From Takakia lepidozioides (Eukaryota > Plantae > Bryophyta), in contig CM060734.1 in the NCBI GenBank assembly GCA_030704615.1, positions 48,732,001 through 48,796,000 of the forward strand: a stretch of DNA of 64,000 nt. The letters run 5' to 3'. Both the position numbers and the translations under genes were made by a program. The number at the start of each line of letters is the position of its first letter. The stretch's first letter is position 1. Below the pieces are notes generated by a model. That model worked only from the letters and a program-made list of their open reading frames with translations. It was not told the origin of the DNA and did not search any database. Shown in pieces: positions 1-64,000 of this stretch.

Positions 1-2069
1 GCCACCTCGTCTGCATGGCCTAACATCGGTCAGACAAGAACTTCATCATGACAATCGCGAGAAGACACAAAACAAGAACAAACACATGCTTACCTTCTCC
101 GCCGGCTCAACACAGGACACTGCGATGTGATGAAGTTTCTCCATCGACATTTCTGGTTTCATGGGTCTGGAGTAATGCAGTCCTATCTCCGCCAGGAACT
201 CGGCACCAACCAAGGGTCAGCGATTGCAACTTGCTTAACAAGTTTGGACCTGTACTTGGTCCGTGATTGCCTCCCTGCCTGCACAATGTGACTCTCTATC
301 GACGCGGCCGCCTTGTTGGGGGCATCATTCTCAAAGAACTGCCTTTTGGCATAGGCCAAGTCATCCCTGATGTTCGTCTGCATTCCCATACCCAGCGGAT
401 ACAGTCAGGCCACGGATCCCTGCAACAAATAACATTAAATCGGGAAATTTGAGATGAACCTCACCGAATAGAGGATCTCCACCATGGCGTCCAGTGTTGG
501 ACGGTACCAGGTGCGATCTGCTTTCGCAAGGGACTTCCTGTACAGCTCGGGATCGAGGGATTTTTGGAAGTCCGTCAGCGGTGCTGTTCCCACTTCTTGC
601 ACTCTGTAGAGCGTATGTGCCAGATGAGTTTCCACGAAGGCCCTCTCTGTTACCCTGCCATGGAGAAAAAAACAACATGAAAATATGATTTCGGCACAGC
701 AATCCAATTTCCAGTTCATAGAGTGCATGACAGTCAAGAACATTGTCTATTTCGGCGCCGCAATAGGCAGTACACAAAGATGTAGTTGTATACTTACAGA
801 TTTATATCCGCCATGGCACCCTTCAGCAGTCCTCTGTCCTTGACGTCCACCTTGACGACAATGCAGTCCACCATGTAATGCCAACTGATATCTTGCGGAT
901 GTATTTCAGCAATGTACTCTGTCCAGGCAAGCATCCTGTGGTTCCCGTCCCAAACGAAGAACATCTTCCCTTCCATGTGTGCGAATGTGGGATTAGTCTT
1001 CAGAGAGGCTTCAAATTCGGCATTTACAGTGTGCCAGTGGGGGCTCCAATTCTGAAGCTCCTCTGCAGTGGGGCCCCTTGTGACACCCTGGTCATTCTCA
1101 ATGGAAATGTAGAATGCTGTCGACCCCCGTCTATACCCCTCTCTGAAGTTGTGCTTCAGTCGATTGATGTCCCCTGGCAGTGCTTGCCTTACAACTGGAA
1201 GGCTAACCATGCGACACAAAGGAACTTTGAGGTTCTCCGGATACACCATGGAGCCCAAAACGCGGCCTATGTTGCTATGAGTCTCTGCCAGCAACCTGTT
1301 TGCTGCTATGTTCATGTCTCGTGCGCTCATGAGCATATCCGCTACCAGTTTCTTACTTCCAGCACCTCTCTCACTTCCCTCACCCCTCTCACCAGCCTGT
1401 CTACTGTCCTGGAGGTTTTGCTCCCCCGCAAGCTCCAACAGGTTCTGATCGTCATCAAGTCGCACCACGTTGTTGTCCTCTGCTTCTGTCAGCTCAATGG
1501 GCCGCCCTTCTGCAAATCCGACTCCGACATCTCCAGCGGCCTCCACCGCATCCGTGTTTTCTGAAACTGCCTGCAAACCCAATATCTCCGCTTCCAGTCT
1601 CCCTAGTGGTTTTACTGGCGAAGCCATGGGCTCCTTCTGCTTCCTCGGCTTCCGAACTCTAGGTGGGCTTTTCTGAGGCAATATCTGAGGTGTTGAATGA
1701 GGACTCGCCTGCTTCGATGCACTTCCACCTTGTGAGCGCAACACCCGGGCAGGAGTATCCAAAGTTGACTGTGTTGCCTCGCCCCTCTGCGATCCCTCCC
1801 CAGCTCCCATGTCAAACAAACAGGAAAACATGAGACACTGCAGGCCAAAAAAAAGGTGTAAAAGGAATAGTGCGTATGGAGTGCTTCACATCCGCGAAGC
1901 ACGAATCTCTCACTGGTGGGCGATCCGAGTCTCCGGATAACGAGGTCTGCATTTCCTGCATGAGACGGAGCTTAAGTCGTGTCGTCGGCGGCTTCCCAAA
2001 ATCCCGCGTCCTCCTCTTTGCCGGAGTCGCTTGACCTTCCACAAACTCTATGCTATCACTATGCTGCAT
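1..2069 (-). pseudogene. Spliced ParB/Sulfiredoxin-like (DGNHR motif) protein gene, copy 1; C-terminus runs off the window
   Basis: ORF 794-1831 contains FFVWDGNHRMLAW, a ParB/Srx-like motif. In-frame GT-AG exon chain: ~2069-1914, 1837-798 (phase-2 donor CT|GTAAGT), 654-465, 377-94, then an exon starting near 20. One apparent 1-nt frameshift near 205. The exon model is corroborated by the homolog at 60485-61204. Confidence 0.7.
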
Positions 2070-2318: not shown

Positions 2319-3770
2319 GAATTGCGGCACCGAAATACCGTTCCGTTCACCGGATGCTGTTCCGGGAGCAGCCGGCATTGAATGAAATATCCGCACATCA
2401 TGAAACCCAACCGCCATGAAAATCCCCTGCCTATGACATTCAACAGTCAGGTCGGTACGTTCCATCAGCGGACGGTTGGAAGTGCTTTCATGCACAAACT
2501 TATGAATTTCGGCACCGCAATTCATCGCTTGCCCAGTCCTCATCCATCATGAAGAAACGTGTCAGTCGGATATCGGAGCCTTAATTGTTTCCGGGACAGT
2601 GGAGACGGCTGCACCTCGGCACATTTCATCCATATTTCGGCGCCGACATTCATCCAGCGCGAAGACTAAATCGGCACCATGCTGCGCTTTGCCGCCATCA
2701 TTGCCCCTGACGGATGCTGTCCATGCAATGTCTGGACATTTAACTATAATTTCGGCGCCGAAATTATACTTTATGTGCGGCAACGTCCTATGCGAAAAAA
2801 GACCACTTTATGGATACTGTCAGTTTCAAATGAAAACAACGGCTAAAATGCAATTAATTTTCCCCCAACATGAGAAAATATCCCCTTTCGACATTGGAAA
2901 ACGGCCTTTTGTAAGACAGAAGGGCTTGAATGTGCCGATTTCTGCATTAAATGCAGAATATTCGTGTTATCTTCGTCGGAATGGATTATCTCCAACGAAT
3001 TTCGGAACATAACATCATCCAGAAGCAAGAAGTAAGTGTCCGGTTCGGACGAATTTCGGCGCCGAAATTCATCCGTCGCATAGAAAATGTAATATTACAG
3101 TTACTCATTGCGGACAGTAAGGATGAATTTCGGCGCCGAAATTTATCCAAGTGAAGACAAAAGAAAATTAGAATTCCGGACTTGGATGAATTTCGGCGCC
3201 GAAATTCATCTGTCGCAAGGAAAAAAAAAATTAGAATAGAGGACTTGGATGAATTTCGGCGCCGAAATTCATCTCTCGCAAGGAAAAAGAAAAAGAACGG
3301 AGGTCTTCGGATGAATTTCGGCGCCGAAATCCATCCGCAGGACAGCAGAATTAGAGTCGGAAAATGACAATAAGAATGAATTTTGGCTTCGAAATTCATC
3401 AATTCTGCCTTTTCAGGATTACTGTCATTCGGATGTCGGCACCGAAATGCGGACACGTGGTGAATCACGACTGTAATCACGAACACATTCATCCGTATTT
3501 CGACATCCAAATTGAACACTTATGTGCAGAAACAATTTCATGAAGAAGATGTTCATCCGAATTTCGGCACCGAAATCCATCCGTTGGGTGCTTGCTCAGT
3601 TTCATGAGGTGAACAAATTACGATTTCTGTCGCCGGAATTCATCCCCTGGCTTCCAAATCTGTTACATGACAGAGATGTTCATCCAGATTTCGGTGCCGA
3701 AATTCATGGGAAGGCCTGATTTATTGTAGCCCAACTGGTGGTACATCACAATTCAGGCACCGAATATCCG
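2319..3770. repeat. Array of ~18 palindromes, consensus (GGAT)GAATTTCGGCGCCGAAATTC(ATCC), between the two divergent genes
   Basis: Near-perfect copies at ~3051, 3121, 3184, 3247, 3309; degenerate copies at ~2319, 2503, 2633, 2748, 3376, 3432, 3559, 3622, 3687, 3749. Spacing is mostly 62-65 bp. Confidence 0.95.
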
Positions 3771-3954
3771 ATGTGAACTTGCTGTTGTCGTCCGTTTTTG
3801 TAACGTACGTTACACACCTTCATCCATACGTGCACTGATCACCCATCCTGTTGGATACATAATCCTCCAGAAAATCATTGTGGTATTAGGTAGGACACAC
3901 TCTACTCATTGCAGGACTTCGTTGCGGAGCGTACCGAGAGGTCCCGTCTTCAAC

Positions 3955-6900
3955 ATGGACTTCCGTGTTTGGGTAAACGTGTACTTCCATCCTCATTCTC
4001 TGAAAGCTAAAATACCCTGCGACCAAGGATTTGCGATTGTCACTGAACAGTACTTGTGTGTGAAGTTCGGGCTCCGCCCTGGAACGGTGTTTTTGGAAGA
4101 GGAGACGAAGGATGCTTATGGAAATTTTCTGGAAAGTGCCGTCATTCTGCATGCAGATTTCGGAAAAGGCAAAGAGTGGCGGCTCCCAGCTTCTGAATCC
4201 ATCCGGTACAGTGCAATTGGTGAAATCGTGCCTAAAGAGTTCCCACGCTGGAACTTGGTTGATCCTCCTTCCACAAGAGGGTCTGGCGTGCAAGATGTGA
4301 AGTCTGCCATCAAGGATGTGGGCACCTCTTCACAAGCAGAGAAGCCCAATCATGTGAAAAGGGAAATGCAGGAAAACAGGGAAACAGTCGTCCACGACTT
4401 ATCCAGTGACGATGAAGACTGTATGGTCCTTCCATCGTATGTTTCGAAGTCGTCCGTCACTAGGAGTGTTCAGAAGTCGGCAAACAATGAGCATACACCC
4501 TCCGACTCAACTTCCGTCCGCTCAGTAATCGACATATTGCGGAGGATGAAGACAACGGGTTCCCGCTCCAGTGACCTTCTTAGGCTTGATTACGACAAAA
4601 CTCCAATCCATTCTGTGGAAACTTTGCCTGAAGTTGTGGATGGGAATGCTATCTACGAGTTCCCCGTAGTGCCGGCAGGCGCAGGCCCAGACGGCATGCT
4701 GGCAGGAATGAACAGGAAACATGACGGCCATCCTTGGTGTGTCACCAAAACTTCATTGTCCAACCTGGGTGATGGAGTTCGAGTGAGATATGTATTGTGT
4801 GCTGGGCATCTTAAATGTTTCTCGAGCACATGTTACCATTACACGAGCAAAGGCACCCGGAATGAGACTGACTGGATTGGCAATTCGTCGACCCCATTTT
4901 GGCCTCAAGGTAAAGTTCCTGCAGGGACGTTCAAGTGTGCCCATTGCAACACAGCCCCTACATGCATGGCAGTGTGCAACGCCAAGCAGTACTACGTCGG
5001 GACCGTCGGCCCAGCGTGCACCAGAGCATGCATTCACATCGGAAAGCATGACCACCCCGTCGTCAGAGGCAATTGCAGAGTCGCTTTTCAACAAGCCCAC
5101 GATATTATCAAGGAAGAGGTGTGGTTCCGGCTAGGAGCAAAACCAAAGCAGATACAGCTCGCATCCGCACATAGAATTGCAATTGCCAGAATAATGTCGG
5201 AGGACGGAAGCACAAGAGAGAAGCGGGGCAAGGGGGACATGAAGGAGCTGCTGGAAGCTGTCTCCCATGTGTGCAGCCCCAATGTCAGGAACCACATTGT
5301 CAGCTGCAAGAAATGAATCGGAAGAGGATCAGACATGCACTCCATCTTGGAAGTGAAGCGCACATGCGGCTACGACTTCATCCAAGGCAGCTTCTTTCCT
5401 GGTCAAGGCTCAGAGACGGACAGGTGCTTCATATTTAAGATGTCAACGTGCGGACCGGGGAGCGGTGTCGATTTGGTGAAGCGGATGACCAGTGGAGACC
5501 TCTCAAATTGTTGGGTCATGTTCGACCACATCCAGCAAATTACCAACCACGATTGGGTGACAATGGGGGCACATGTATACGACCCACATTGCAGAAAGTT
5601 GATGACCATTGCTATCTGCGAAATGAAAGGCGAAGACACAGATTCAGAGTTGCATATGTGGCGCGGAATTAATGAGCAAATGGCGAGAGCGAAGTTTGCC
5701 CCCCCCCCCCCCCCCCCCGATTTTAGGGGCTTCATGGCTGACAATGCCCAGGCAAACTGGGCTGCAGTTAGGAGGGTATATGGGGACGACCCAAAGACTC
5801 CAATGGAAGGTAAGGAGAGATCTTGCGGGTTCCACTTCATGCAAAGTTTGACGCAAAACACAAAAAGGTTCGTGGCATCACGCCACCGGCAGGATCATAT
5901 CAGTATGTGTCTTGCGTGGAAAAATGCAAATTCCATCGACGAGGCGGAGACCGAGTTTGCAACCATACGCGCCTGGTGGGTGTCTTCAGGGGCAGTGGAT
6001 GTGAAAGATCAGCCAAAACTGCAAACGTGGCTTGCGTGGTGGCACTATAGATTCCGCCAGTTTGGAGACTACATGAGACAGGTAAGACATTTCTGTACTT
6101 GACAATTGTTCTGTTTTGTGCTTAGACATTCTCCACAATGAGTGACATTTCTAATTTCCTTCAACATGACATGAGCTTGGAGGATGACACGGATATGCCG
6201 ACGACGAACATGGCCGAATCGGTGCACTCTTCCTGGCGTGCTTCCTCTGCGGCACATCTCGTTGACATGTTGACAACAGCAACAGAAAATATTGTGAGGG
6301 CCATCATGCAACAATCACGTTACTACCAGTTTCTGGGAGGAAAGCAATGGGGTATCGGACCTGACAGGCAGGAGATGCTGATGAGGGCGGCGCATCGTTC
6401 GACCAATCCCAAAAAATGGATTGCTGCATTGCGGGAAACAATAAGGTCAACGCCGTTACACAGTCGGGGGAACTGCCTGGAGGGCGATGTCCGCAGCCGG
6501 CCGGTGAAGAGAAGAATTGAGGACATGCCCGGAGGCGACGGGGATTCATGGAGATCAGATATGAACATCCGCACTCAACCTCGGGGCGCAACGATGTTGC
6601 GTCCCACGCCTCCTCCCAACATGACTCGTACCCCCTCTCCTACAGCATCCATGGAATCGCTGCCAAACTCGGGACACCATGCCGAGGATGAGCATGTTGC
6701 TCCTATTTTCGTTACCCAATACAACATTCCAATTGTGGAGCGAGATGTGTCGGCCTCGCAGTGGAGAATTGCACGGACCCGTCCGACATTTTGTGGCAAA
6801 TGTTGTGCTGTTCGTGTCGACACCAACCAGAGATGCAATGAGATGATTCGGAGGAGCCCGCAGGGCGGTGTGTCTGCCCCTTGCTTCACAGGGAGATTTG

Positions 6901-7595
6901 TGTGCGCAAAGTTTGTGGAGGCCACACTGAAGGAGTTTTGGTTCTACAGGCACGACATCATGTCTCGTGTGTTCGGTAAGCCCAAGTATGGTGTACAAGG
7001 CATGCCTGAACCACCGGCAGTCTGGCCTGTGGCAACTGGTACAGATCTTACCCTGGAGGAGGTAGACGCTCTAGGAAGTGCAGGGTTTCGACTGGTGGAG
7101 AGGACAGACGTTCCACGAAATCCAATTCCCAGTCGTCATCCTCCTCCCACGAGAAGCTCTTCGCCCCGCATACCGGTGGGTGACCCCACAGCTTGGCCCA
7201 CCCATCGGTGGGGGAAACTGAAAAGACGGCGGCCACCAACAAAGGCGAACGACACCAGGATGGCCAACACTCTTGCCTTGCCCTGCATAGTGCAAGGTTG
7301 CAGGGATGTTCCTCACCCCGGGATGGGGCGCATATTTCAGTTGTCAACAGCCGGGTCTGCTGCGCGCAGTGTCGTGTATGCAATCACGGTTTCTCAGTAC
7401 CCAGCTTGCAACTGTGAGGACTTCCTTGTTATGGAATCGAAGAATGCAACATACGTCCCCTGCAAACACCTTTATTACATTTTTCTGAAGCACATGAGTT
7501 GCATATCCGCAGTGGACGTCTTCATCCATGCTCCAACACTGAGTTTCAACGAGCTGCACAAGGCCCTACGGCAGGATACAGATCGAAGTGCTTGA
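3955..7595 (+). pseudogene. MULE/MuDR-type transposase: GCM-like Zn domain + DDE domain + C-terminal SWIM finger
   Basis: GCM/WRKY-like HDGHPW...CAGHLKC...C...CAHC...C...GKHDHP. DDE residues in WVMFDH, FMADNAQA, a CxxH (CGFH) and TTNMAESVH. SWIM motif CNCEDF...PCKHLYYIF. ORFs 3880-5316 and 5335-6102 share a frame, split by one TGA (5314-5316). A phase-0 intron starting at 6082 (CAG|GTAAGA) joins to the 6138-7595 frame. Confidence 0.85.
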
Positions 7596-8278
7596 CATTC
7601 CACATTCGGGAAGGAGAAAGTGGCAATTATATTACATTCATTTTCTTGCACCCTATTTTTTTGTGAGGAATTATACACTTGGTGGTGCCGCACCGCCATG
7701 GCTCTAGGTGCATTTCGGTGCCGTAATACATGAGAATGTGGTTTTTGGCCGTGAATGGCATGCGCATGCTTTTTTTATTTTGGTTGTCTATAAATGGATC
7801 TGAGTAAGGCATACATTGTGTGGAGATACACGAGCATTGAGGCCTATTTCAGCGCCGTTATTGGTCTGTATACTGCATAGTGCTTCCTTGTTACTGCTCT
7901 TCATTCAATTTGTGGTGATTTTGCAGCCCATCCTGGCATTTTCGTCCACCTTTATTAGAAGACTCCAATTTGCTACCAATACATTGACAGTGTTATGCAA
8001 ATGTGATGCATTTACAAGATTGCTAGTTCTGTGTCCCAGTGGGAAGGGTCCTACTGCACATTCCAGCATTTGCATACTGCACCTTATGCAAACAGCAATC
8101 CATACGACAAAGGACACGTCCTAGCATACTGGCAGTGAATTGCAAAAAACCTTAACAGAAGATTATCCAAGCATGTATATTCCCCATATGGCACAGGGAA
8201 GCTACTTGATTTCTGAATCAAAATGTATGTGCCATGAGTGTCGGCGAGTCGAAACATGTCTACTCTAGCATGCAAGAC

Positions 8279-8878
8279 CTATGGTCCCCTCGCCCAAGAA
8301 GAAGGAACTCGAACTGGCCTCTCAAGGACCTCCTGAGTGACCGGGTGCCGATATCTGAACAAAATGTCAGCGGTTTCTGTCGCCCGGTTGAAACGAACGA
8401 GGATGTCGTGTTTATCGATAGCGACCCCTTGGTAGAAGGACATTTTCACAGTGGGCCCTGTGTTCCCCTCCTCCTCATCCTCATAATTGAAGAGAATGTC
8501 CCCACTTTCCGAGCCAGTCCGTCCACGCGTGAAGTTTTCACCTATGCACTCATCATACGTCCACTCGCAACAATTCCAGTGATACAGCAATGTTGTGCGT
8601 GATCTGTTCGGCTCCCACTCAAGCGAAAAGTCCAGGTCCATGATGCATAGGAACCACCTGCTCCCCAGCCAGGGTCTAGGAGAATCGTGCAATCCTGGAA
8701 GAAACTCCATTGCTCTCAGCTGGACAAGACGAGGATCGTCCCTGTAAACATCTAGGAAGATAATGATGTCGTCTGCTTTCGGGACAATGACTCCTGTCTG
8801 GCGTCGATAGATGTGATTCGGGCACGACATGGCCTCACGACACAGCAAGAACTCAGAGTAGGGAGGAGATGGGCACAA
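8279..8878 (-). CDS. Uncharacterised accessory ORF of the MULE element (199 aa), convergent with the transposase
   Basis: Open frame with globular-protein-like composition, lying between motif-bearing non-coding DNA (7713, 7846) and the 9062 array. No recognisable motif; may have further exons toward 7900. Confidence 0.4.
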   Translation of the reverse strand: MCPSPPYSEFLLCREAMSCPNHIYRRQTGVIVPKADDIIIFLDVYRDDPRLVQLRAMEFLPGLHDSPRPWLGSRWFLCIMDLDFSLEWEPNRSRTTLLYHWNCCEWTYDECIGENFTRGRTGSESGDILFNYEDEEEGNTGPTVKMSFYQGVAIDKHDILVRFNRATETADILFRYRHPVTQEVLERPVRVPSSWARGP

Positions 8879-9061
8879 CAGAGAAGAGTGAAGAGCAAAA
8901 TGAGAGCGAGGCCGGCGGAAGAGGGATATATCATTGCTGCACTGCCAATGTCGTATGCGGCAGAATTTCTATTTCCTCCAACATGTGTGCTTTTAATAGA
9001 CAAATTTGCACCAGTTTCAGGAGAGTTTGCAAAACTCCCTCACCGTAAGGCGGGTATTTGC

Positions 9062-9545
9062 TCTCCGGAGCCCAATTTCGGCGCCGTTATTGGATGGACT
9101 GCGGAAGCTTCAGCCGAGAATTTTGTTTCCGGAGCCCAATTTCGGTGCCGTTATTGGTTGCACTACCCAGCCTTCAGCCGGGTATTTGGTTTCCGGACCC
9201 CTATTTCGGCGCCGTTATCGGCTGCACTCCGGTGGCTTCAGCCGAGTATTTGGTTTCCGGACCCAATTTCGGCGCCGTTATTGGCTGCAATCCGGAGGCT
9301 TCAGCCGTGTATTTGGTTGGCGGAGCCCAATTTTGGCACCATTATTGGCTTCACTCCCGAGCCTTCAGCCGGCTATTTCTTTTCCTGTGCCCAATTACGG
9401 TGCCGTTATACCCAACCTTCCTGCACTTCTGCAACTGTACTATCCACGGTTATAGGTCGCCATTGCGTTTTCGGAGTCTGCAAACCCGGATCCTAATTCC
9501 GCTTGCGTCTCTGCCTCTGGGATAATTTCGGTGCCGTTATTGCCC
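9062..9545. repeat. Subterminal tandem repeat, ~64-bp unit containing AATTTCGGCGCCGTTATT
   Basis: Core motif at 9074, 9138, 9202, 9265, 9329, 9393 and 9524. Confidence 0.95.
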
Positions 9546-9579
9546 AGAATTCAGTTTTTCTATGACCTGGCCTGGCAAT

Positions 9580-9823
9580 CCATGAGCCTGGGCTCCAAGT
9601 CATGAGCGGACACTGGTACTTATGAGCGGAGTGCTTCCAGGATGAGCGCGGAAATCTTCGAAAACCTTCTCTTCTTATACTACTTTCGATTATTTTATAG
9701 TTTTGGGCCCGAAAAAAATCTGCCGAAATTCGAAGTGTGTTACTTTGCGGCTCATGGGTGAGCCATGCCCGCTCATGAGCTCATGAGCTCATGGCTCATG
9801 AGCTCATGGAATAGCAACCCCCC
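9580..9823. repeat. Putative right terminal region of the MULE with clustered CATGAGC heptamers
   Basis: Repeated CATGAGC/GCTCATG at 9581-9650 and 9750-9810, ending ATAGCAACCCCCC. Confidence 0.6.
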
Positions 9824-38498: not shown

Positions 38499-39020
38499 TG
38501 CGACCTCCAAATGGTGGTGGTCGCAGAATTTATCTTATTTTTTAATAGTTGCGACCACCAGCAGGGGTGGTCGCATTTTTTGTTTTTTCTTAAACAGTTA
38601 CGACCACCGCTACTGGTGGTCGCACAATTTTTATTTTATTTGTAATAGGTGCGACCACCATCAGGGGTGTGGTCGCACAATTTTTATTTTATTTGTAATA
38701 GGTGCGACCACCAGCATGGGGTGGTCGCAGATTTTTTCTGTTTTTTTAATATGTGCGACTACCAGCATGGGGTGGTCGCAGCAATTTTTTTTATTGACTA
38801 CCAGCAGGGGGGGGGGTCGCAGCAATTTTTATTTATTGACCACGAGCATGGAGGTGGTGGCAATATATATATTTTTTTAATAGGTGCGACCACCAGCAGG
38901 GGGGTGGTCGCAGCAATTTTCTGATTTTTAATATCTGCGACCACCAGCATGAGGGTGGTCGCAGCAGTTTTAAAAAAGAAATAACATGCGACTTCCTCGT
39001 GCGATCTGGAGCGGTCGCAA
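38499..39020. repeat. Hairpin array TGCGACCACC-N6-8-GGTGGTCGCA with T-rich spacers (~11 units, ~50-bp period)
   Basis: Units at ~38499, 38550, 38600, 38650, 38703, 38754, 38796, 38838, 38885, 38936, 39000. Confidence 0.95.
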
Positions 39021-39399: not shown

Positions 39400-41407
39400 G
39401 GATCCCTTGGTTCACCGTAGACCTGCACAAAAAGGACGGTGTTCAATGCAATCTATGGGCATTGAAGCTGGAGGAACGCAAAGATCGCATGTTATATCAT
39501 CTCGGCTATAGAGATGGGAAGAATGCAAGGGTTAGTTTGTGCCCAAAAGCCTTCATGCGAGTGAAAGCCCACTTTGCCCAATGTGGAGGCATCACCGGAT
39601 CTTTAACCCTAGTTAACGTCTTCGCATCCAAGGCGTGCATCTCTCTTGGTGCATCCCATGTCATTGTCTCCCCCCAGTGCTGCCAATTTAAAAAATCGTA
39701 AGACGATACATCTAATGGGCATGTTGTACTGGTTGTACTCGTATCCCGTGGTCATATTGTCTTGCAACCCAAACAACTCGTAGAAACGTCGATGGATTGG
39801 TTCACGACAGTCAGGGCATTGGCTGGCTCGCATGGCTGCCAATATGAGACATGCGGGATGGAACAAATGGCCACATGAACCAAGCATATAGCCTCCCTCC
39901 GGTCCGTAAGGGCTTAGGCACATTGTGCACACCGTACCATCTGTTACCCATGACGCTGGATTGCTCCGTGGTATCCACGTCCGTTTATCCTCATGAATGT
40001 AGGATGACATCCTCGGCCTGCTGTCCCACCCCTCCTCTACTTCCAAATCCTAGTTTATGCTCTTATTGGTATCGGAAATTGTATGCACACATTGCTCAAA
40101 CATGACATCCACATCACCACATGTGGTGAATCCAGTGTACTTCGACGTGAATACATCACGCACAGTGTCGTGCCTTTGCAAATTAGCATAGATGCTATCT
40201 ACGCTTCGATTCGAACGTGCTGCACGTTGGAAGGAGCACAACGCTTATTCTATCCGTGTTTCCCGCAATGCTAGATGGCCCGCCCATATTACCCAATTCC
40301 GCCAATTCCCCTTCAACCATGGCCACGATCGGATTTGCATGGCATTTGAGTACCGATATGCAACAGCCCTAGCTTGCTCGCGTTCCCCCACAAGCTGCTC
40401 TAATTCATGTTCTTGGGCCGATGTAATTTGCACGGCTGAACATTCCCCAGTTTCCACTATGGGGTCCTTCCCTTTTCTTGCCCTCTCTGCCGTAAGTCTT
40501 TCTTCCTCAACCCTCACCGGGTCCAGTTCAGGCGTTTGCACTTCATTCCCATGCCCGATTGAGTCAACCCCGTCGATGACGCCGTCAATGTCCATTGGTG
40601 GCATATTCAAACGCGCCAATATGTCTTGCTCGTTGGTGATTGGCCTCGGGTCCTGAAGCACACCGCGTACGTTATCGAGAGTCTTCAACCCCATTCTTTC
40701 CAGCAACTTCGCTATTTTCCACCGTTGCAAATGAACAATATCATGCAAGTCCTTGATGTGCTGTTCATGTGCGGCCAACTGTTCCTCCAACGGAGAGCGT
40801 ACCTCGCCCCCCTCTACCTCAGATGTTGAAGGCCCGGCTGCAGAGACCTGTTGCGGCGTATAATCTGGAGGTTGGTCTGCCTTTCCTCCTTCTTCCACCT
40901 CGTCGTTTCCATCCAACCGTATGATGTCTTGCCCCTTACGTATATACAAGTCTGGGATATCAGAGAACATGTATAGTCTAGTACGTTGTCTCGCAATGGC
41001 AGTTTGTCAATCCATTGGTCGCAATAAAATCAACTCAATAAATACGAGACCTTGTTGTTGACGAACGGTTGACCCCACAATGTCGTATGTACCTCCTCTG
41101 CCCTGTGGCGAAAATGCGGGTTGGCGCAAGAATGTAAGCTAGCTTGATTTTGTTTGGTTTGTGGATCATGCCTATCTTTGGGCTACAAACGATTTATGTG
41201 ACACAAGTCCACAAATTTCCTGCAGTCACCAAGCGACCACCGCTGCCCCAACTTCCAAACTTCCCAACCTAGTTCCGCAAGAATGTTGGGGTCATTGTAT
41301 ATGTCCCAACGAAATTCGCGCCTGACCCCTTTTGGTTTTTTTTTTGGAGGTCCAGATTCATTATCGTCATCCCTGGGATGACCTCCTCTGTCTTCCTCCT
41401 CCGCCAT
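39400..41407 (-). pseudogene. RING-H2 protein pseudogene, copy 1 (NLS-like PPKKKPK, acidic/coiled-coil middle)
   Basis: CTMC...CGHLFHPAC...CPDC. ORFs 40245-40970, 40050-40241 and 39609-40046 are one frame broken by single stops; N-terminal piece at 41183-41407. Confidence 0.8.
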
Positions 41408-41815: not shown

Positions 41816-42390
41816 TGCGACCGCCAGCAGGGGGTGGTCGCATCATTTTTTTCTTTTCTTTATTATGTGCGACCACCAGCAGGGAGGTGGTCACAATTTT
41901 ATTTTTTATTTTTTTAATGGGTGCGACCACTAGCAGGGGGGTGGTCGCAGATTTTTTTATTTTTTTTAATGGGTGCGACCACCAGCAGGGGGTGGTCGCA
42001 GATTTTTTTATTTTTAATAGGTGCGACCACCAGCAGGGAGGTGGTCGCATAATTTTTCTTTTCTTTAATAGATGCGACCACCAGCAGGGGGGTGGTCGTA
42101 GGGGGGTGGTCGCATAATTTTTAATATCTACCAACAGTGAGTAGCTCAGTTGGTTAAGTGCACTGAGTGCGACTCGGACGATTCTGGGGTCAAATCTTGC
42201 TACTTGATGGTGGTATGGTTCGTGTGTGGTGCCCCATTCCTACGCCTCTTGGCGCATAAATGAAAGAGGTTATTTTCTCCTCTCACTACTAAGGGGCCTG
42301 ATTTGTGAGCTGTTGCTCCCAGGTGTTTCCCTAAAAATAAAATAAAATAAAATAAAATCTGCGACCACCAGCAGGGGGGTGGTCGGACCA
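41816..42390. repeat. Hairpin array TGCGACCACCAGCAGGGGGTGGTCGCA (~8 units), interrupted by a SINE
   Basis: Units at ~41816, 41868, 41922, 41974, 42023, 42073, 42360. Confidence 0.95.
42130..42358 (+). mobile_element. tRNA-derived SINE-like insertion
   Basis: A-box TAGCTCAGTTGG and B-box-like GGGTCAAATC, ~130-bp body, (AAAAT)n tail; ATCT on both sides. Confidence 0.6.
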
Positions 42391-54989: not shown

Positions 54990-55958
54990 TGCCTTGATGG
55001 TACTTTTGAAACTTTCTAACTGCCTCTCGCGGGCCCTGTCCTTAAGTATTGTGTCGTTTCGACGAGAAGCCGCCTTGTACACCTCATTCATTCGGCGTTA
55101 ACATATTATAGCATCTTCCAGTTCGGACAGCAACAAATGTCTCCCAATCGGTTCTCGGTCATACAATTCGTTCTCCTCCGGCACCCATGGAACCTGTGGG
55201 AGCCGGATAAACCTGGACCTTCTCTGACTCTAATGTCCTCCCAAATTGCAGCAAAACTGCTCTCTCTTCCATCAATCGGAAATGCCTCCTGCATATATGG
55301 TTATCTCCCAGTCAGATGTGACCTAGAAATACTGGGGATCTTTGACGTATGTCGGGTTTCCGGCATATATGCCCATTGCCATGCATCTCTCTGTCTGCAT
55401 CCCATACCAAGTTCTTGCCTCAATGCACACAATTCAGAAATGTAAATGGTAGCCCATCCAATGGGATGTTGTGTCGATTGTATTCAAAACTTATGGGCAT
55501 TTTTTCCTCCAAGCCCACCAGCTCATAGAAACGGCGATAGACTTGGTGTACGACATTCTGGGCAAGCACTCATCTGCAAGGCTTGCGGGATAAGACATGT
55601 AAGATGGAACATATGTCCACATGATCCAAGCACATGACATCCCTTTGGGCCGTATGGATTCCTACACATCGAACAAACTGTGCTATCTGATATCCATGAC
55701 GGTAAAATGCGTCGTGGTATCTCCTCCCTCTGGGCCGGTTTGATGTGGCTGGTCATCCTTGTTGTGGTGTCTCACTCTTCCTCTATCTCCAATTCCCAGT
55801 TTATGCTTATGTTCAACTCCGAAATTCTGTGCTCATATTGATCGAACATAGAATCCACATCTGCCCAATTGGTATACCCAGCGAACACGCGGCTTGATGC
55901 GATGCGGAGATCGTTATACCTTTGCATGTTGACATAAATGCTATCCACGCTACGGTTC
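54990..55958 (-). pseudogene. RING-H2 pseudogene, copy 2 (diverged paralog, 5'-truncated at the array)
   Basis: RSVDSIY.N.QR, SW..D.TVC.MC..PYGP.G...LGSCGH.FH..CLI and CP.CR are shared with copy 1. Confidence 0.8.
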
Positions 55959-56605
55959 GACCACCATCAGCGGTGGTCGCAACTGTTAAAAAACAAGAAA
56001 AATGTTGTGCAACTGCTGGTGGTCACAGCTATTAAAACAAAATACAAATTGTGCGACCACCAGCAGCTGGTGGTCGCACAATTTTTATTGTTTTTTATTA
56101 GATGCGACCACTAGCAAGGGGGTGGTCGCAACATTTAATTTTTTTTTTATAGCTGCGACCACCAGCAGGTGGTTGCAGAATTTATCTTTTTCTCTTACAG
56201 TTGTGACCACCAGCATGGGGGTGGTCTCAACATTTGTTTTTTAAAATAGGTGCGACGACCAGCAGGGGGTGGTCGCACCATTAAAAAAAAAAAAAAACAG
56301 TTGCGACCACCATTACTGGTGGTCGCACAATTTGTATTTTGTTTTAATAGCTGTGACCACCAGCAGTTGCACAACATTTTTCTTGTTTTTTAACAGTTGC
56401 GACCACCGCTGATGGTGGTCGCACAATTGTTTTCTTAAAATAGGTGCGACCACCAGCCGATGGTGGTTGCAAATTTTTTTTTTTGGTTATTAGGTGCGAC
56501 CGCTTAGGGGGGGTTGCACATTTTCTTTTTGTTTTTAAAAATGTGCGACCATCAGGAGGGGGTGGTCGCAGCAGTTTTTTTGTTTTGTTATTTGCTGCGA
56601 CCACA
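55955..56605. repeat. Hairpin array (TGCGACCACC...GGTGGTCGCA, ~13 units) with an internal ~100-bp inverted duplication
   Basis: Units read directly; 55960-56060 is the reverse complement of ~56318-56419. Confidence 0.95.
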
Positions 56606-56619
56606 CACATGGGCCAAAG

Positions 56620-56980
56620 GTATAGGCTGTCCTAGAGGTTGCACTTGGGCCTCGACATAGGAGACACACTGGGATACATAGAAGATCTTACATTTGGGCT
56701 TCTAGATGACACTGGATACTTGGGCCAACCGCAGAGGCTATCCTAGAGGTCGCATTTGGGCCTCAACATAGGAGATGCACTTGGATACATACGAGATTGC
56801 ACTTGGACTTAGATGACACTGGATGCTTGGGCCAACGGCACAGGCTACCCTAAATCAAGGGAAAGGTCTTCGGTTCAAATCTGGTCGTAGGCTTTGTGGA
56901 AAAAAAAATGATTAGACTAAGATGACTTAGATGACATTGGACACTTGGGCCAACGACACAAGCTACCCTAGAGGTGCGGT
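56620..56980. repeat. Dispersed/tandem repeat (CACTTGGGCC units + GGTTCAAATC block); second copy at ~63020-63225
   Basis: AAAGGTCT.CGGTTCAAATC.GGTCGTAG...GTGGAAAAAAA.TGATTAGACT..GATGACTTAGATGACATTGGAC occurs at ~56862 and ~63027. Confidence 0.8.
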
Positions 56981-57239: not shown

Positions 57240-58495
57240 GATGACATGGCAGCCGAGCGCTCAAACCTCTTGGGTAAGAGGCATTGGGCCTATAGCGACT
57301 GAGAAGTCCACACGACAGTTTTGGATGCATAGCTTCTTCTGCTCCGAATGGGTGAGAGCGTGGTAGTTCATGATCGTTGTCCGAATTCTTGCTTGTACAG
57401 TTTGCACTAGTTTCACATTGCTATAAATTGCTTGTAAATGACAACCAATTGTTCCTCATCATGGCAAGATGAGTGAATTTACAAGGTTTTCAAATCGTTC
57501 TTGTGACGAAAGATGCAATCCCCAGTCAACTGATTTTTTATTGCTTTGAAGCTGTGCGATGAATGAAACTTGTATTACTACTTCAAATATAGAAGAGAAA
57601 CAAGACATTATCGAATCGTCATTTTTGTGTTGTAGGACATGTTGACAGGTCCCTCCATCAGGTAATCAATCTCACATCTGGTGTCATATTCAAGGTTTTT
57701 GGCAGAGAGCAGTTTCATTGCCAGTAAATCGCATATATCTCTCTCTAGTTTGCTTTCCATTGCATTGTTTGACATGGGATCAAGCCAGGTAGAGAGAAAT
57801 ATGTGATTTACTGGCAATGAACCTGCTCTCTGCCGAAAGCCTTGAGGATGACACCACATGTGAGACTGCTTACCTAATGGAAAGACATGTTAAAATGCCC
57901 TCCAATTGAAAAGCGATGATTCATTAATATCTTGTTTCTGTTCTTTATCTGATGTAGTAATAGAAAATTGATTCATCGCCACGACTTCAAAGCAATACAT
58001 AATCATTTGTTTGGGGAACGCTGATTTCGTCACATGAACCAATTGAAAAGCTCGCAAATACACACATATTGCCATGATGAGGAACAATTGGTTCTCCTTT
58101 ACAACCAATTTAAAACAATGTGAAACTAGTATAGCATGTACAACCAAGTGTTTGAAGAACGATCATTACTTACCATTCTCTCACTCGTTCGTATCAGAAC
58201 AAGCTGTGCATCCAACACTGCAGGTTCCCGACAAGTTCCAACACGACCAATGTTGACATGGCAGCCGAGCGCTCATGGATCGTGGGCTCGTGGCGAATGA
58301 GAAGTTTAGGCGACAGTTTTGGACGTGTAGCTCCTTTTGCTCCGAATGGGTGAGAGAATGGTAATTAGTGATCATTGTGTGAACACTTGCTTGTCAAACT
58401 GCTTTAGCACATACAAGCAATTGTATGAACAATGATCAATACTTATCATTCTCTCACCCATCCGTAGCAGAAGAAGCTGTGCATCCAACAATTCA
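57240..58495. repeat. Degenerate direct and inverted repeats
   Basis: 57244-57390 resembles 58256-58390; 58157-58220 and 58428-58490 are inverted relative to 58314-58378. Confidence 0.7.
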
Positions 58496-59489
58496 CATTT
58501 CCGCCAACAACACCAATGGGGTCATGGACGACGCTCCAACTGATGCTGCATGCATTATGTTGGACAAGAATGTTGCTTCAATGGAGTACTATAATGCAGG
58601 TCACAATATCTCTACTTTGAGAGATCTCAGACTATTCACACTTACTTCAAATATGGAAAGGGTTCTACATGCCCTGTTACAGGTCTTTAACAAATTTGAA
58701 GTTAATAAAAAATGGTTCAACAGGCCAGCATGCCCTCTTGCAGGTACCGGACAAGTATATGGAGAATAAAAAATGGTTGAAATGGTGAGCCAATCGTTCT
58801 GTTATCAAATGATTTTATGTTGTTTTGAAGCTTTGCCAGTGTCTGCCACATGCCTGTAGGTGCATAATTTAACGCGCGGAATGTTTTTTAAGAAACAGAA
58901 CCATTTGTATCGAAAACGACGAAACATTGACATGACTACTGGTATGGCCCACAAATGGAAGAGGTCTGCGACGTCCATGAAGCCAAAGCGCTCAGGAGTT
59001 TATATGACTAGGGTACCTGCAGGGAGAAGCAGGGTGTGTGATTCCAGTCGAACACATATTACTAAAACATGATCGACTTTACCATTGATCTAGACCTTTT
59101 ATCTGGCTCAAACTGGAAGCTTAGCAAAAAATAAACTCTGGACCTGCACATCCTCCACTCACGGGGGGTTCTTCTCTCTGGTCTTGCAGTTCGTTTGACT
59201 CTGATAGTATCCTGGTGATCCCTGCAAATTCACTCTTTTCTTTTGTGCTCTCTCATTCATTAAGAGGATAACTATGACCGAGTTTTGTTCAAGAACTAAT
59301 GTGCTTTTCCACTAACCTTGACACCAACAACTCTGATCATACGACATAAGGTCCTAGCTACTTGCTAGAATGACAAACTTTGGCGTCATATAAGAATCAC
59401 TATGTCCATCACCTCACAAGATAAAAAATGTTGAAAACCCATCCACTCTCCCTCTTCGGAGAGAGTTCGAGTCCCAGATAAAAAACTTT

Positions 59490-60484
59490 TCAAAACCGCC
59501 ATTCTCCCCCACCGGACTGGGTTTGAATTCCCAAGATTGCGTAGATAGAGAAGCAAAGCTTCGAGTCGACCGGCTCATACAGCAACCACGCCAACAAAAC
59601 CGAGCTGTAACAACACAACATCACCTGTGATGCTTTTACGATGAAACTGAACATATTACTCTCATGATGAAGCTTACGATAGATACTCTCACCATGGAGC
59701 TGTCCATTGCCCCATTTTCTGTCAAGGTTCATCATGTCGCGTATTGTCCCCCCATTCCACTAGCGAGTGTAACCCTCTACCTCACGTGCATTCACAGCAA
59801 AATATGAGATAACACACGGATGCTGGAACTTCACTGCCAAACACTTGTCGTTATGTTGTCTCAACACTTTTTTTGGATTTTTGGACTTGGGTTTTTTTCC
59901 CGCTAGCTCCCAATGCTCCGGTATTCTAGAATCGCCAACAATCCTACACTGACGGACCTTAGCATACCCTCCTTCTTTGTAAGGGCCAATCTCTACCACC
60001 TTCGCATTAGAGTTTGGGTAATAAAGACCAGTTGTGTCTCCAGCCCTCCCCCACTCGATGACCCCGCCCGATGACCCCGCCTTTCAAGGGACAACCCTAG
60101 TCCGGCGACGTGAATTCTGACTTGCCAAGCAAACCCAATACTTGACACGCCGCATTAACTCAGCTTCGACGGATGACACTCGACCCTCGGTTGTTCTATC
60201 CCTCCATGTCTTCATTAGCTGCCTCAAATTCCAAGTGACGTCTTTCGCCCTGTTTTGGATCCACCGATTGAACTTCGGCTTGTCCCTGTCCGCCGTCCAC
60301 TTAACCCCCGCCAAAGCGTTCGTCATTTTCCTCTCCATACTCTGCTGGAAAATCTGAAACCCCTCCCATCCATGCCTGACATAAGCACTCTCCAGCCTTA
60401 CCATGTCTCTACCCTTGAAATAATCCACCACCACTTCTTTCACCCTATCCAAGGCATCCAGTCTCGGTAGTCTGGCTTGTTGAC
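59490..60484 (-). pseudogene. Protein kinase pseudogene (N-terminal extension + N-lobe; catalytic loop not seen)
   Basis: One frame with two in-frame stops: EGGYAKV (Gly loop), ELAGK (VAIK-like), QHPCVI, WNGGTI. No HxD or DFG found. Confidence 0.7.
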
Positions 60485-61204
60485 CTGGCTGCAATGCATG
60501 ACATAAATAAGTGAGTTTCTCTCATTTCACGTGGTTTGTCATTCACAAGTGCATGATATCAGTCTGGAAGTCAAACTCATTCCAATATTTTTCTTCCTCT
60601 TTAGATCCACAGAGACTTGGCACGTCACTACCAACCTGGTCCACATCTTTTTTCGGATGCAACGAATCAGGATTATGAAACTAAACGAATTCAAGTTGGT
60701 TCTTCCATCGGAGATTATGAAGAAGTGCGAGAGTGTGAAAGCCTCTGACACTTGGTATTCACTTACCAGGAGGCTTTCCTTGAATAGATGTACATGGTGA
60801 GACTCTAACTATTTTGTGTTTCCCATACTATTGTGCCATGATTGGTAGTCAACCAATGTCAACATGATTGGTAACCAATGCCTTTTGGTGTACAACAAGA
60901 AATCGCTGAGGTGGGAGATATGAGGAAGGCTGAATATTACGCCACTGCATCGGAGGAGGAGATGACAGCAAAGGGCGTGGAACTTGCTATAATAAGGGAA
61001 ATAGATGCTCAGCGGAAGAATATTCTTTTAGGGTTCATGAAGCAGCTGCGTATTGCAGATCTGATTTTGGGGAATGACTTCTTTGGTCATATCAAAGTGC
61101 ACTGTGACAAACACGCCAAGGTAGAAATGACCCAAGAGAAACTGCACAGATTTTTGATTTCCATGGTGGACCCGCAGACGAAGGTCAGATGGTTGGAAAT
61201 TTGA
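60485..61204 (+). pseudogene. ParB-like family gene, copy 2 (5'-truncated; DGNHR segment missing)
   Basis: AAMHDINK with phase-2 intron 60511-60604, then STETWHVTTNLVH...KASDTWY, intron from 60797, then KQLRIADLILGNDF...EMTQEKLH...VDPQTK. Aligns exon for exon with copy 1 (GAMADINL | VTERAFVETHLAH...KADRTWY | KQVAIADPWLGAEF...EMSMEKLH...VEPAEK). Confidence 0.8.
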
Positions 61205-61370
61205 AACTCCGATCCTGTTAAAGACCAAATATGTTCCCTAGCAGTCCGAAAGAGCCTGGTTCCAAAGCTCAAGGGTTCAGTGACCATGTCTTTGATACGT
61301 GGCTGCACAAAGCCACATTTTGGAGCCACGTAAAATCTCTTTTGCAACTGTTATGGTCAACAGACATTAC

Positions 61371-61975
61371 TGCGACTGCCAAGGCTGATGGTCGCATTGT
61401 ATTATTATTTTTTAATAGGTTCGACCGCCATAATTGACGGTCGTGTCCAATTTCGGAAACCTTAATTATTTAAGAAAAACCTTAATTATTTATTTTTTGA
61501 AAAATGGGTGCGACCGCGAAGGCTGGTGGTCGCAAATAAATTTTTATTTTATAGGTGCGACTTTCATAATTGGTGGTTGCACCCGTTTTCATATATATAT
61601 ATATATATTGGTGCGACCGCGGGCTGGCGGTCACATATAATTTGTATTTTCTAAATAAGTGCGACCGGCAATTGATGGTCGAATCTATGTAAAAAATAAA
61701 AATAAAATAAAATTACTGTTAAAAAAAATAAAAATAAAAATAAAAATTGATATGACCGTCAATCTTGGCGGTCACATGTAATTTTTATCTTTCTAATATG
61801 TGCGACTGCCTGAATTTGCGATCGCATTAATGTTTTTAAAAATAAATTACAAACGACCGCTGAGTTTTGGCGGTCGTACTTATTTGTCAGAAAACATTTA
61901 TATGCGATCGCCAAATTTCGGCGGTTGCACGTATTTTTTCAAAATAAATGATCGTCGAATTTTAGAGGTCGCACG
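61371..61975. repeat. Degenerate hairpin array, variant consensus TGCGACCGCC-N6-7-GGCGGTCGCA (~11 units)
   Basis: Units at ~61371, 61420, 61509, 61556, 61612, 61660, 61752, 61801, 61853, 61903, 61950. Confidence 0.88.
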
Positions 61976-64000
61976 TATTTTTGAAAGTTAGGAGCAAGTG
62001 CTCAGGTGATACTAACCAGCCCCTTCATTTCAGCTTTCCGCTATCATTCTTGTGATCTTATAATGACTTACTCATTTAAAGGGAGGGCGGGCTGCAACAT
62101 TCGGCCGGGGACTTAGAGCTTTGAATATAATTGTTTTTTGTATGCTAACACTGGCGTCTTCTAGTGCATCTGAGAACTTTTAATTTGCTATAGCTGACCT
62201 CTCCCTTTGTTTGGACCATCATTCCGCAAGTGTAGTGAGATTCCCTCGGTTTACATAGGACATTCGGATTTGTCCACTCTTCATGCCATGGTGGCTATGA
62301 TGCATTTTGGACTTATTTGACTAGTGCTAGAATGCGTGATTTAAGTGGGTATAGTGCCTGCCTCCTTCGTTTTCTATCTTACGATAATAGTAGTGTCAAT
62401 TTGCTATCTGAAATTGGGCTATGGTGCCTAAGACTGTGTTGTTTCATTTGAATCAGTGGTGCCAGTTTGCTCTGTAAAATTGGGCAATGGTGCCCGAAGT
62501 GCTACCTTGAATTTTTCATGATAGCGAGTTTGCCACAATACATAAGCTAATTTCGCCCACTATTTCTGCCTCCATTTCCACATGTGTCACCTAGGTAATA
62601 TTGCGAGACGTTGTTATGTTTTGTTTTGTTTTGTCATGTTGGGATGTCCCAGACCGCGGGGCCAGCCTTGGTGCTTGGTACCATTGGAAAGCCCTCGGTG
62701 AGGAGGGGTGCATGGGCTTGGTCTTATGATTTTTTGGACCTGCGGTGTGGGAGATGTCGAATTTCAAGTACTTTTGGTCGCTGGAAATTCGCAAAAAATA
62801 AGAAAGTGGGCTTTCCTGGCATAGAGAGAGAGTATGACACCTTTCGAAGGAAACGTAACTTATGGTGTCTCTTCACCCCGAAGGGCTACTGCCTTCCAGC
62901 TGAAAGGTGGACACCTTCATGACACACCAGACCGTGTTTGAACCCACAACCAGATCCAACGTGGTATGTGCCCATTACCTAATGTTGGCACAATGATCGG
63001 AGCCTCGACGAGAGAGATATCAAGGAAAAGGTCTCCGGTTCAAATCAGGTCGTAGATTCCGTGGAAAAAAAATGATTAGACTTGGATGACTTAGATGACA
63101 TTGGACAGGCTACCTTGGAGGTCATACTTGGGCCTACACATAGGAGACGCACTTGAATGCATAGGAGATTGCACTTGGGCTTACGTGACCCTGGACACTT
63201 GTGCCAACGGCACAGGCTACCCTAGTATATAGAAGAAGTCGCCATATTGCACATTATATAGCATACCTGTAGCCAGGTGGTTTCTAGGTGGACATTGTAC
63301 TAGTCGCCATCTCTGCACTCAATCCAAAAATATGTCACCCTATCCACGCCTAGGCAGAAATGAAAAAAAAAAAGGCTCATCACAGATAGTGCACTAGTTT
63401 TCTATCCTCTCTCACCTGCCCCGCTCTCTGGATCTATCCTCAGACCTCTTGGGTCGTATCCTTAGGTTGCCTTGTCATTTTCACTCAGAGCGGCTGGACT
63501 CCCACCTAGGTGTCATGTCAATGCCCTGGGCAAGGTTCTTCGGCTTCGGGCTTCTAGGATGTTCGCATTCTAAGTGCTCATAATTCTTACGTCATCGTTC
63601 TTTGGACATCCGTCACGCGTCACCGTGAGTTTAGGCCTTATGACAGCCTTGGGCCAAAAAGGTTTTTAATTTTTTTTTCCCTTCAATAATCTTAAATGCA
63701 TGGAATTCATGCAAGCCCTGTCGTATAGTAATTATGAATAGGTAGTAAAAATCTGGAAGATCACATAATTAGACTATTAATACACATCAAGGTAACAGGA
63801 TTTGAGCCCTGAATCACCCAAGTGGCACGCACGGTAATATCCCATGGACTTTCATTTATTGCGTGCACAAGAAGTTGAATGGATGTCATTCATTAAAAGA
63901 CAGAATATTCTCTTGACAACTGTCTCGATCGAATTGGAAGTCTAATCGAAAGTATCGGTGCTAAAGCAGCTGAAACCTTTTGCGTAGTCCTTGCTTAGGA

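Follow-up and report, generated by a model that had tools for sequence, protein, structure and literature searches.

The locus examined here raises the question of whether a ParB-like gene carried by transposons and the palindromic repeats beside it form a matched pair, each element family having its own protein and its own motif. The window, by which we mean the whole 64,000-nt stretch of the Takakia lepidozioides genome that was analysed (contig CM060734.1, positions 48,732,001 to 48,796,000), holds two diverged copies of such a gene, and a preliminary description regarded the second of them, with the array that follows it, as the strongest support within the window for such pairing. We found that copy 2 is a dead internal fragment, 840 nt long, of a transposon accessory gene, and a decayed member of a second clade of the family in the same genome. 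The window is land-plant DNA made up mostly of nested transposons, with Ty3-type retroelement frames, a hAT transposase (PF04937, PF05699) and spliced genes (Table 1).

Table 1. Features of the window; positions are counted from its first letter.
Feature	Position	Strand	Basis or remark
Copy 1: exon A (ParB/Srx fold, DGNHR), exons B and C	90..1831	-	extends past window start
Copy-1 array, TTCGGCGCCGAA palindrome, 63-nt unit	2323..3703	.	lies between gene and transposase
Mutator-type DDE transposase (putative), head-to-head with copy 1	3880..7595	+	conserved motifs
Second copy-1 array, same core, different 64-nt unit	9048..9530	.	
TGCGACCACC hairpin array, same kind as copy-2 array, beside RING cassette	38499..39019	.	
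TGCGACCACC hairpin array, opposite side of same RING cassette	41816..42387	.	
TGCGACCACC hairpin array adjoining truncated RING cassette	55956..56605	.	
High-copy repeat piece with kinase-like reading frame, in place of exon A	59763..60490	-	contig depth
Copy 2: exon A, last 7 codons (AMHDIN + 2 nt)	60491..60510	+	same ending in homologues; upstream DGNHR core missing
Copy 2: intron 1, GT..AG, phase 2, 94 nt	60511..60604	+	
Copy 2: exon B, frameshift close to 3' end	60605..60796	+	alignment, profile, BLASTP
Copy 2: intron 2	60797..60848	+	donor certain, acceptor approximate; short local duplication after
Copy 2: exon C, start approximate	60849..61329	+	TGA 61202-61204 and frameshift; GT donor 61330
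11 degenerate hairpins, CGACC-N10-13-GGTCG, about 50-nt period, AT-rich spacers	61371..61975	.	

Copy 2 (60491-61329) is homologous to the copy-1 gene (1831->1 of the window), and the pairwise alignment on which that claim had been made to depend is highly significant. Exon B of copy 2 (60605-60796) aligned with that of copy 1 (654-465) at a Smith-Waterman score of 79, compared with a mean of 21 for shuffled sequences (z 14.1; 0 of 2000 shuffles as high), and among 3192 windows this was the highest-scoring one other than self, the next unrelated window scoring 44. The same exon pair was recovered by BLASTP (E 1e-9), and exon C (60878-61201) gave a score of 84 (z 15.5, again with 0 of 2000 shuffles as high). 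Profiles built from related loci only, when scored on copy 2, reached E 1e-18 for exon B and 1e-23 for exon C. A tblastn search of the window with exon B of copy 1 did not return copy 2 among its matches; it was Smith-Waterman and BLASTP that found it.

The extent and splicing of the fragment differ in part from the preliminary description, which had placed three exon segments matching copy 1 at 60485-61204. Their homology stands, but the fragment contains just the final seven codons of exon A, followed by exon B and by an exon C that runs on to 61329. With homology and two splice sites confirmed, the claim of identical intron positions is true in part: the intron-1 donor coincides (AMHDIN, two nucleotides and GT at 60511 in copy 2; AMADIN, two nucleotides and GT at 797 in copy 1), as do the intron-2 donors (464 in copy 1 and 60797 in copy 2), but the acceptor of intron 2 is ambiguous, and a GTAAGC resembling a donor stands in copy 1 at a point where copy 2 and its relatives read on. 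A third donor, earlier placed at about 61184, was rejected because the relatives read on there; exon C of copy 2 passes an in-frame TGA (61202-61204) and then a frameshift before it reaches the donor at 61330. Among 44 families having exons A and B, 20 show the same phase-2 donor after exon A, 20 are too decayed for the pattern to be read and 4 match it without the GT.

The remainder of the gene is missing on both sides of copy 2. A profile search of the window found the DGNHR core of the ParB domain in copy 1 only, with none beside copy 2, and neither exons D and E nor the methylase exons described below turned up through to the end of the window. Copy 2 is truncated by a high-copy repeat, over which the summed contig depth in run X1, a rough measure, is about 5000-9800, compared with about 90 over the fragment. 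The minus-strand frame in this repeat (~59730-60494), which we take to be kinase-like from its kinase motifs, had no Pfam match. Contigs from X1 and X3 match 61298-61581 exactly and carry other letters before 61299, including GCGACCAC, hinting at another locus in which the tail of exon C lies between array motifs. A very high-copy repeat is present on both sides of the region (56600-56975 and 62600-63225; summed depth 3e4-1e5 in X1), and a long imperfect fold-back occupies 57242-58527, within which 57316-58220 matches its own reverse complement at about 79% identity.

Copy 1, in which exon C also has a stop and a frameshift, retains exon A, and the AlphaFold model of this exon (pLDDT 86) predicts a ParB/Srx fold. 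In a structure comparison with 48161 chains, all 8 rows at Z of at least 5 were ParB/Srx-fold entries, the best being KorB (Z 7.5, for a tool whose caution level is 8; rmsd 2.6, 89 residues aligned); the top Foldseek rows were sulfiredoxin, Noc and ParB, none with E < 0.001. DG-x-H-R is the nucleotide-binding motif of the ParB/Srx fold superfamily. The corresponding residues D136, G137, N138 and R140 are invariant in 17 sequences and absent from copy 2, and 16 homologues of copy-1 exon A share its end residue. Sequence searches of Pfam, PHROG, NCBIfam and the PDB did not recognise the ParB exon. A profile of it matches 1127 clusters at 50% identity, and the same kind of search retrieved long, full-length proteins that carry it, the named relatives coming from the liverwort Riccia and the fern Adiantum; viral contigs yielded no relative of the gene.

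To place copy 2 within this family, we used 80 metagenome loci, all found by the DGNHR exon (exon A), which collapsed to 47 families at 90% identity. Exon A is followed by exon B in 75 of the 80 loci, and exon C is present in 62. Copy 2 groups with three families (L005, L007 and L042; support 92/87), all of which have the DGNHR exon, as the preliminary description had expected of intact relatives; because the loci were picked by that exon, relatives without it may also exist. Profiles of exons B and C give weak matches, at best E 2e-4 and 7e-5, to the central part of the proteins from Riccia and Adiantum. In canonical ParB a central helix-turn-helix reads parS, and the protein binds CTP and forms a sliding clamp; the middle region here had no match among PDB profiles that would show such a helix-turn-helix.

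The full-length relatives add a domain that the first account of the protein and its palindrome left out. Their sequences predict a ParB/Srx fold joined, through the middle region, to an N6-adenine/N4-cytosine methylase domain. Spliced relatives are up to 1207 aa long (Riccia P0225), with the methylase-like domain at the end. P0225 matches PF01555 at E 5e-5 and 23.7 bits, and scores in the relatives range from 23.7 to 26.2 bits, all under the cut-off of 26.7; a PHROG DNA methyltransferase profile, built on phage families, matches at E 9e-7. Among named Atlas clusters, those closest to it consist of phage methylases, several of them having ParB_N (score 0.82-0.83), which we treat as a lead only. 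Using iterated profiles seeded from the methylase regions of the long relatives, we found methylase-like exons in 21 of the 24 metagenome families with at least 3.5 kb of downstream sequence, and both motifs in 16. Motif IV precedes motif I, the order seen in beta-class N6-A/N4-C methyltransferases. The canonical catalytic motif of that class is (D/N/S)PP(Y/F/W). No intact copy of it is present in the relatives, in which the motif reads D-[LIVM]-P-x with the aromatic residue often missing (DLPT, DMPT, DVPF, DIPW, DIPE and decayed forms). With a catalytic motif that departs from the canonical form, the methylase may lack activity. A single-sequence fold of the domain reached pLDDT 33.

Head-to-head with copy 1 lies a gene (3880-7595) that we take to encode a Mutator-type transposase from its D, D, CxxH and E residues and SWIM-like finger; MFDH, MAD and CxFH are conserved in 22 homologues, and the E and SWIM-like motif were seen by eye in the window reading frame. 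It had no Pfam, NCBIfam or PDB match and possibly represents an unclassified Mutator clade. One search returned 50 long homologues at E <=0.001, and the protein has a Cys/His-containing N-terminal region. The head-to-head arrangement recurs, beyond copy 1, in 6 of the 19 families with at least 6 kb of upstream sequence; in the other 13 no transposase lies within the upstream flank. We infer that these genes belong to a DNA transposon of the Mutator type, from non-seed plants. Transposons of that type have terminal inverted repeats and 8-11 bp target duplications; the ends of the element here fall outside the window. Neither the window pieces nor the full-length relatives had a Pfam match to DUF1985 or DUF287, the VANC domains. 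A short palindromic repeat based on CATGAGCT occurs at 9771-9808, near the right end of the copy-1 element.

The array that had been reported to follow copy 2 is real, with 11 hairpins, but it is degenerate: the consensus half-site is TGCGACCGCCA, and no exact GCGACCGCC occurs. It starts 3' of the gene, 40 nt inside intron 3, whereas the arrays of the relatives lie 5'. The hairpin pattern has 80 matches in the window, compared with a chance mean of 4.7; 59 of these fall at 38.5k, 41.8k and 56k, and 14 beside copy 2. These three other arrays, to which the copy-2 array aligns at 66-75% over 87-193 nt, adjoin two related RING-finger cassettes (39609-40970 and 55382-55960, both on the minus strand; PF13639 E 1.5e-7, 67% DNA identity), and a profile search of the window found no piece of the ParB gene beside them. 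Copy 2 is therefore weak in-window support for a protein/palindrome pair, and not the strongest as had been proposed, because its array is degenerate, lies 3' of a truncated gene and aligns to arrays that flank RING cassettes. The array itself occurs in 0 of the 80 related loci. Searched for more widely, the hairpin pattern had 0 viral matches and a single other one, in L081, a bacterial GC-rich coding region, which was discarded as chance. Inside the 41.8k array lies a SINE-like insert (42130-42358) with a tRNA-like head, recognised by eye, and an AAAAT tail, followed by a hAT element; ARAGORN found no tRNA in the insert.

Arrays are widespread across the family. Many relatives have motif arrays in two orientations within about 2 kb upstream of exon A, with cores including GGCGCC, CATATG, GAGCTC, AGCTTG and GGGTCG. 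Upstream of L006, L010, L011, L034 and L071, several cores are palindromes of 6 bp like those of restriction-modification systems (GGCGCC, CATATG and GAGCTC), which would suit the target of a methylase. Unlike these two-orientation upstream arrays, CCACCAATA arrays run in one orientation and lie downstream of or within the gene (L022, 4865-6152; L023, L027, L029, L035, L063 and L080). Our comparison of motifs with the protein tree covered 34 families; of the 47, 14 with <900 nt of upstream sequence were left out, L005 among these. Enriched words were present in 24 of the 34 families and none in 10. Motif similarity falls as distance in the protein tree grows (Mantel rho -0.37, 10 of 5000 permutations), with the share of motif-similar pairs dropping from 0.73 among the closest to 0.08 among the farthest, and 35 of the 49 motif-sharing pairs have no alignable upstream DNA. 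Motifs are also shared by 9 of 113 distant pairs, and because copy 1 and L006, one of these pairs, are not sisters, the motifs are not strictly clade-bound. Upstream motifs thus follow the protein tree to a moderate degree, partly by plain descent, and the correlation does not name the binder. Better evidence that the motif itself is selected comes from TTCGGCGCCG, which recurs in four unrelated repeat units (63, 64, 75 and 127 nt) in copy 1 and L006. The idea that each family has its own pair gains moderate support from the relatives, much of which shared descent alone would predict; ownership of the copy-2 array is near even between its own family and another element.

If the GCGACC array belongs to the family of copy 2, a deletion would have joined it to the fragment. 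The opposing account, to which we give a little less than an even chance, is that the array belongs to another element, either of the RING-cassette family or CACTA-like with subterminal repeats, which inserted into intron 3 or captured the fragment, so that adjacency would reflect nesting. The alignment to RING-flanking arrays that have no ParB piece beside them favours it, as do the foreign repeat that truncates the fragment at its opposite end, the different sequence before 61299 in the X1 and X3 contigs, and the failure of RING and kinase queries to match any of the 80 loci. CACTA elements, moreover, have subterminal repeats in palindromic arrays that differ between families (PMC2613891). 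Set against this, none of the four arrays has a fitting CACTA or CACTG terminus, although ends may be deleted, and no CACTA transposase was found; the CACTA at 42284 falls within the SINE-like insert and for that reason was not accepted as a terminus. Position 7 of the half-site is G in 9 of 14 cases in the copy-2 array and A in 50 of 57 in the other three, and exon D was not found after the array within the window. The nearest relative of copy 2 in the tree, L005, shares the CGACC core and is alone of the 47 families in having a dense CGACC cluster (9 in 300 nt; the next has 4), a link that was noticed after the fact, that involves a 5-nt core in a different geometry (GGTCG-N2-CGACC) and that amounts to a coincidence of roughly 1 in 30, a hint.

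A separate matter is what, if anything, reads the motifs across the family. We consider it improbable that the arrays are tandem repeats evolving neutrally, passed on with each family, their motif selected by no protein: the Mantel correlation is what descent would produce, and 10 of the 34 families lack an enriched word, but the same core stands in four unrelated units, motifs persist where flanks no longer align, and the arrays keep their CpG (observed/expected 2.1 and 1.35, compared with 0.52-0.61 in the genes). The transposase is an equally good candidate binder. A reading in which its N-terminal zinc finger would bind the family-specific arrays, with the ParB-methylase gene a passenger or acting without sequence specificity, is plausible though less probable; the arrays lie between two head-to-head genes and the transposase has a conserved Cys/His region, but palindromic dyads suit a ParB-type dimer, and in most families tested the motif copies are clustered no more than about 2 kb from the 5' end of the ParB gene, with one in intron 1 of copy 1. 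Published work points both ways, as the available text has it: in Arabidopsis, a Mutator transposase suffices by itself to activate its cognate copies (10.64898/2026.08.24.746577), and in red algae inverted-repeat arrays adjoin the ParB gene (10.1101/2025.02.11.637652). On balance we lean towards copy 2 being the remnant of a ParB-methylase accessory gene whose intact product binds the palindrome arrays of its own family and marks or protects the element. Such a protein would dimerise through its ParB domain, dock on the family palindromes as a ParB-like dimer via its middle region, and then methylate nearby DNA or, if catalytically dead, shield the element from host silencing in a VANC-like manner. 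A broader conjecture, which we think unlikely, is that a ParB-methylase of phage origin, borne by Mutator-type transposons in liverworts, ferns and other non-seed plants, loads on family palindromes as ParB does on parS and writes 4mC or 6mA on its own element to escape silencing, protein and palindrome diverging together; copy 2 and the CGACC array would then be a second such pair.

The family brings the ParB-methylase idea to land plants, with their workable genetics, and it is large (1127 clusters), so that many natural pairs of protein and motif are at hand for reciprocal binding assays. Should these genes be active, plant genomes would have in them a mobile source of 4mC or 6mA; a host-encoded 4mC enzyme is described in Marchantia (10.1101/2021.02.12.428880). 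Being dead, the copy-2 fragment itself contributes nothing beyond a second clade in the same genome.

Algal transposons are already known to carry ParB-methylase accessory genes, as well as ParB genes that adjoin arrays of inverted repeats. In Ectocarpus, Sola1-1_Ec32 encodes a 1104-aa ParB-like/DNA methyltransferase accessory protein opposite its transposase, and the same proposal, that the protein binds and marks its own transposon, is an existing prediction there (PMC12477816). The likeness is one of layout, a ParB-like domain and an N4-C/N6-A methylase on one gene opposite the transposase, and it holds for the relatives, not for the copy-2 fragment alone; the Ectocarpus element has a Sola transposase in a brown alga, whereas here a Mutator-type transposase occurs in land plants. 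In the red alga Bostrychia, Plavaka elements with the genes PAG3 and PAG2 carry a ParB-homologous accessory gene beside tandem inverted-repeat arrays across families, together with a PF01555 methylase, and homologues are reported on Mutator elements of Chondrus (10.1101/2025.02.11.637652). According to the available account, two separate genes are involved there, one joining ParB to a 2OG oxygenase and the other the methylase to SET, and the transposase is of the EnSpm type. A land-plant Mutator version with a ParB-methylase did not appear in the literature searched, as far as the available text extends, including a Mutator survey (PMC6446971), a DNMT survey (PMC12344493) and an adenine-methylase review (PMC4738411); a 2011 review cited in the Ectocarpus paper, or Repbase, may hold one.

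VANDAL elements of Arabidopsis are Mutator-like, with the anti-silencing accessory gene VANC and family-specific short motifs multiplied in non-coding tandem repeats (PMC5735166). Multiplication of one motif in different tandem repeats is shared with the family here, in which it is seen for TTCGGCGCCG in copy 1 and L006; in the part of the VANC work available, the proteins have DUF1985/DUF287 domains and the motifs are non-palindromic and were tested in vivo, whereas our elements have no such domain match. CACTA TnpA is likewise an element-encoded protein that reads family-specific palindromic subterminal arrays (PMC2613891), the difference being that no CACTA terminus or transposase was found here. 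Described phage ParB-N/N6_N4_Mtase proteins (PMC4738411) have the same two end domains in the same order as the plant proteins and are the likely source of the plant gene, which differs from them in its splicing, in the length of its middle region and in the degenerate state of its catalytic motif. The gene family is a land-plant variant of the class predicted in algae; the comparative evidence that motifs follow clades is new, and the available part of the Ectocarpus account contains no such motif-versus-clade analysis (PMC12477816).
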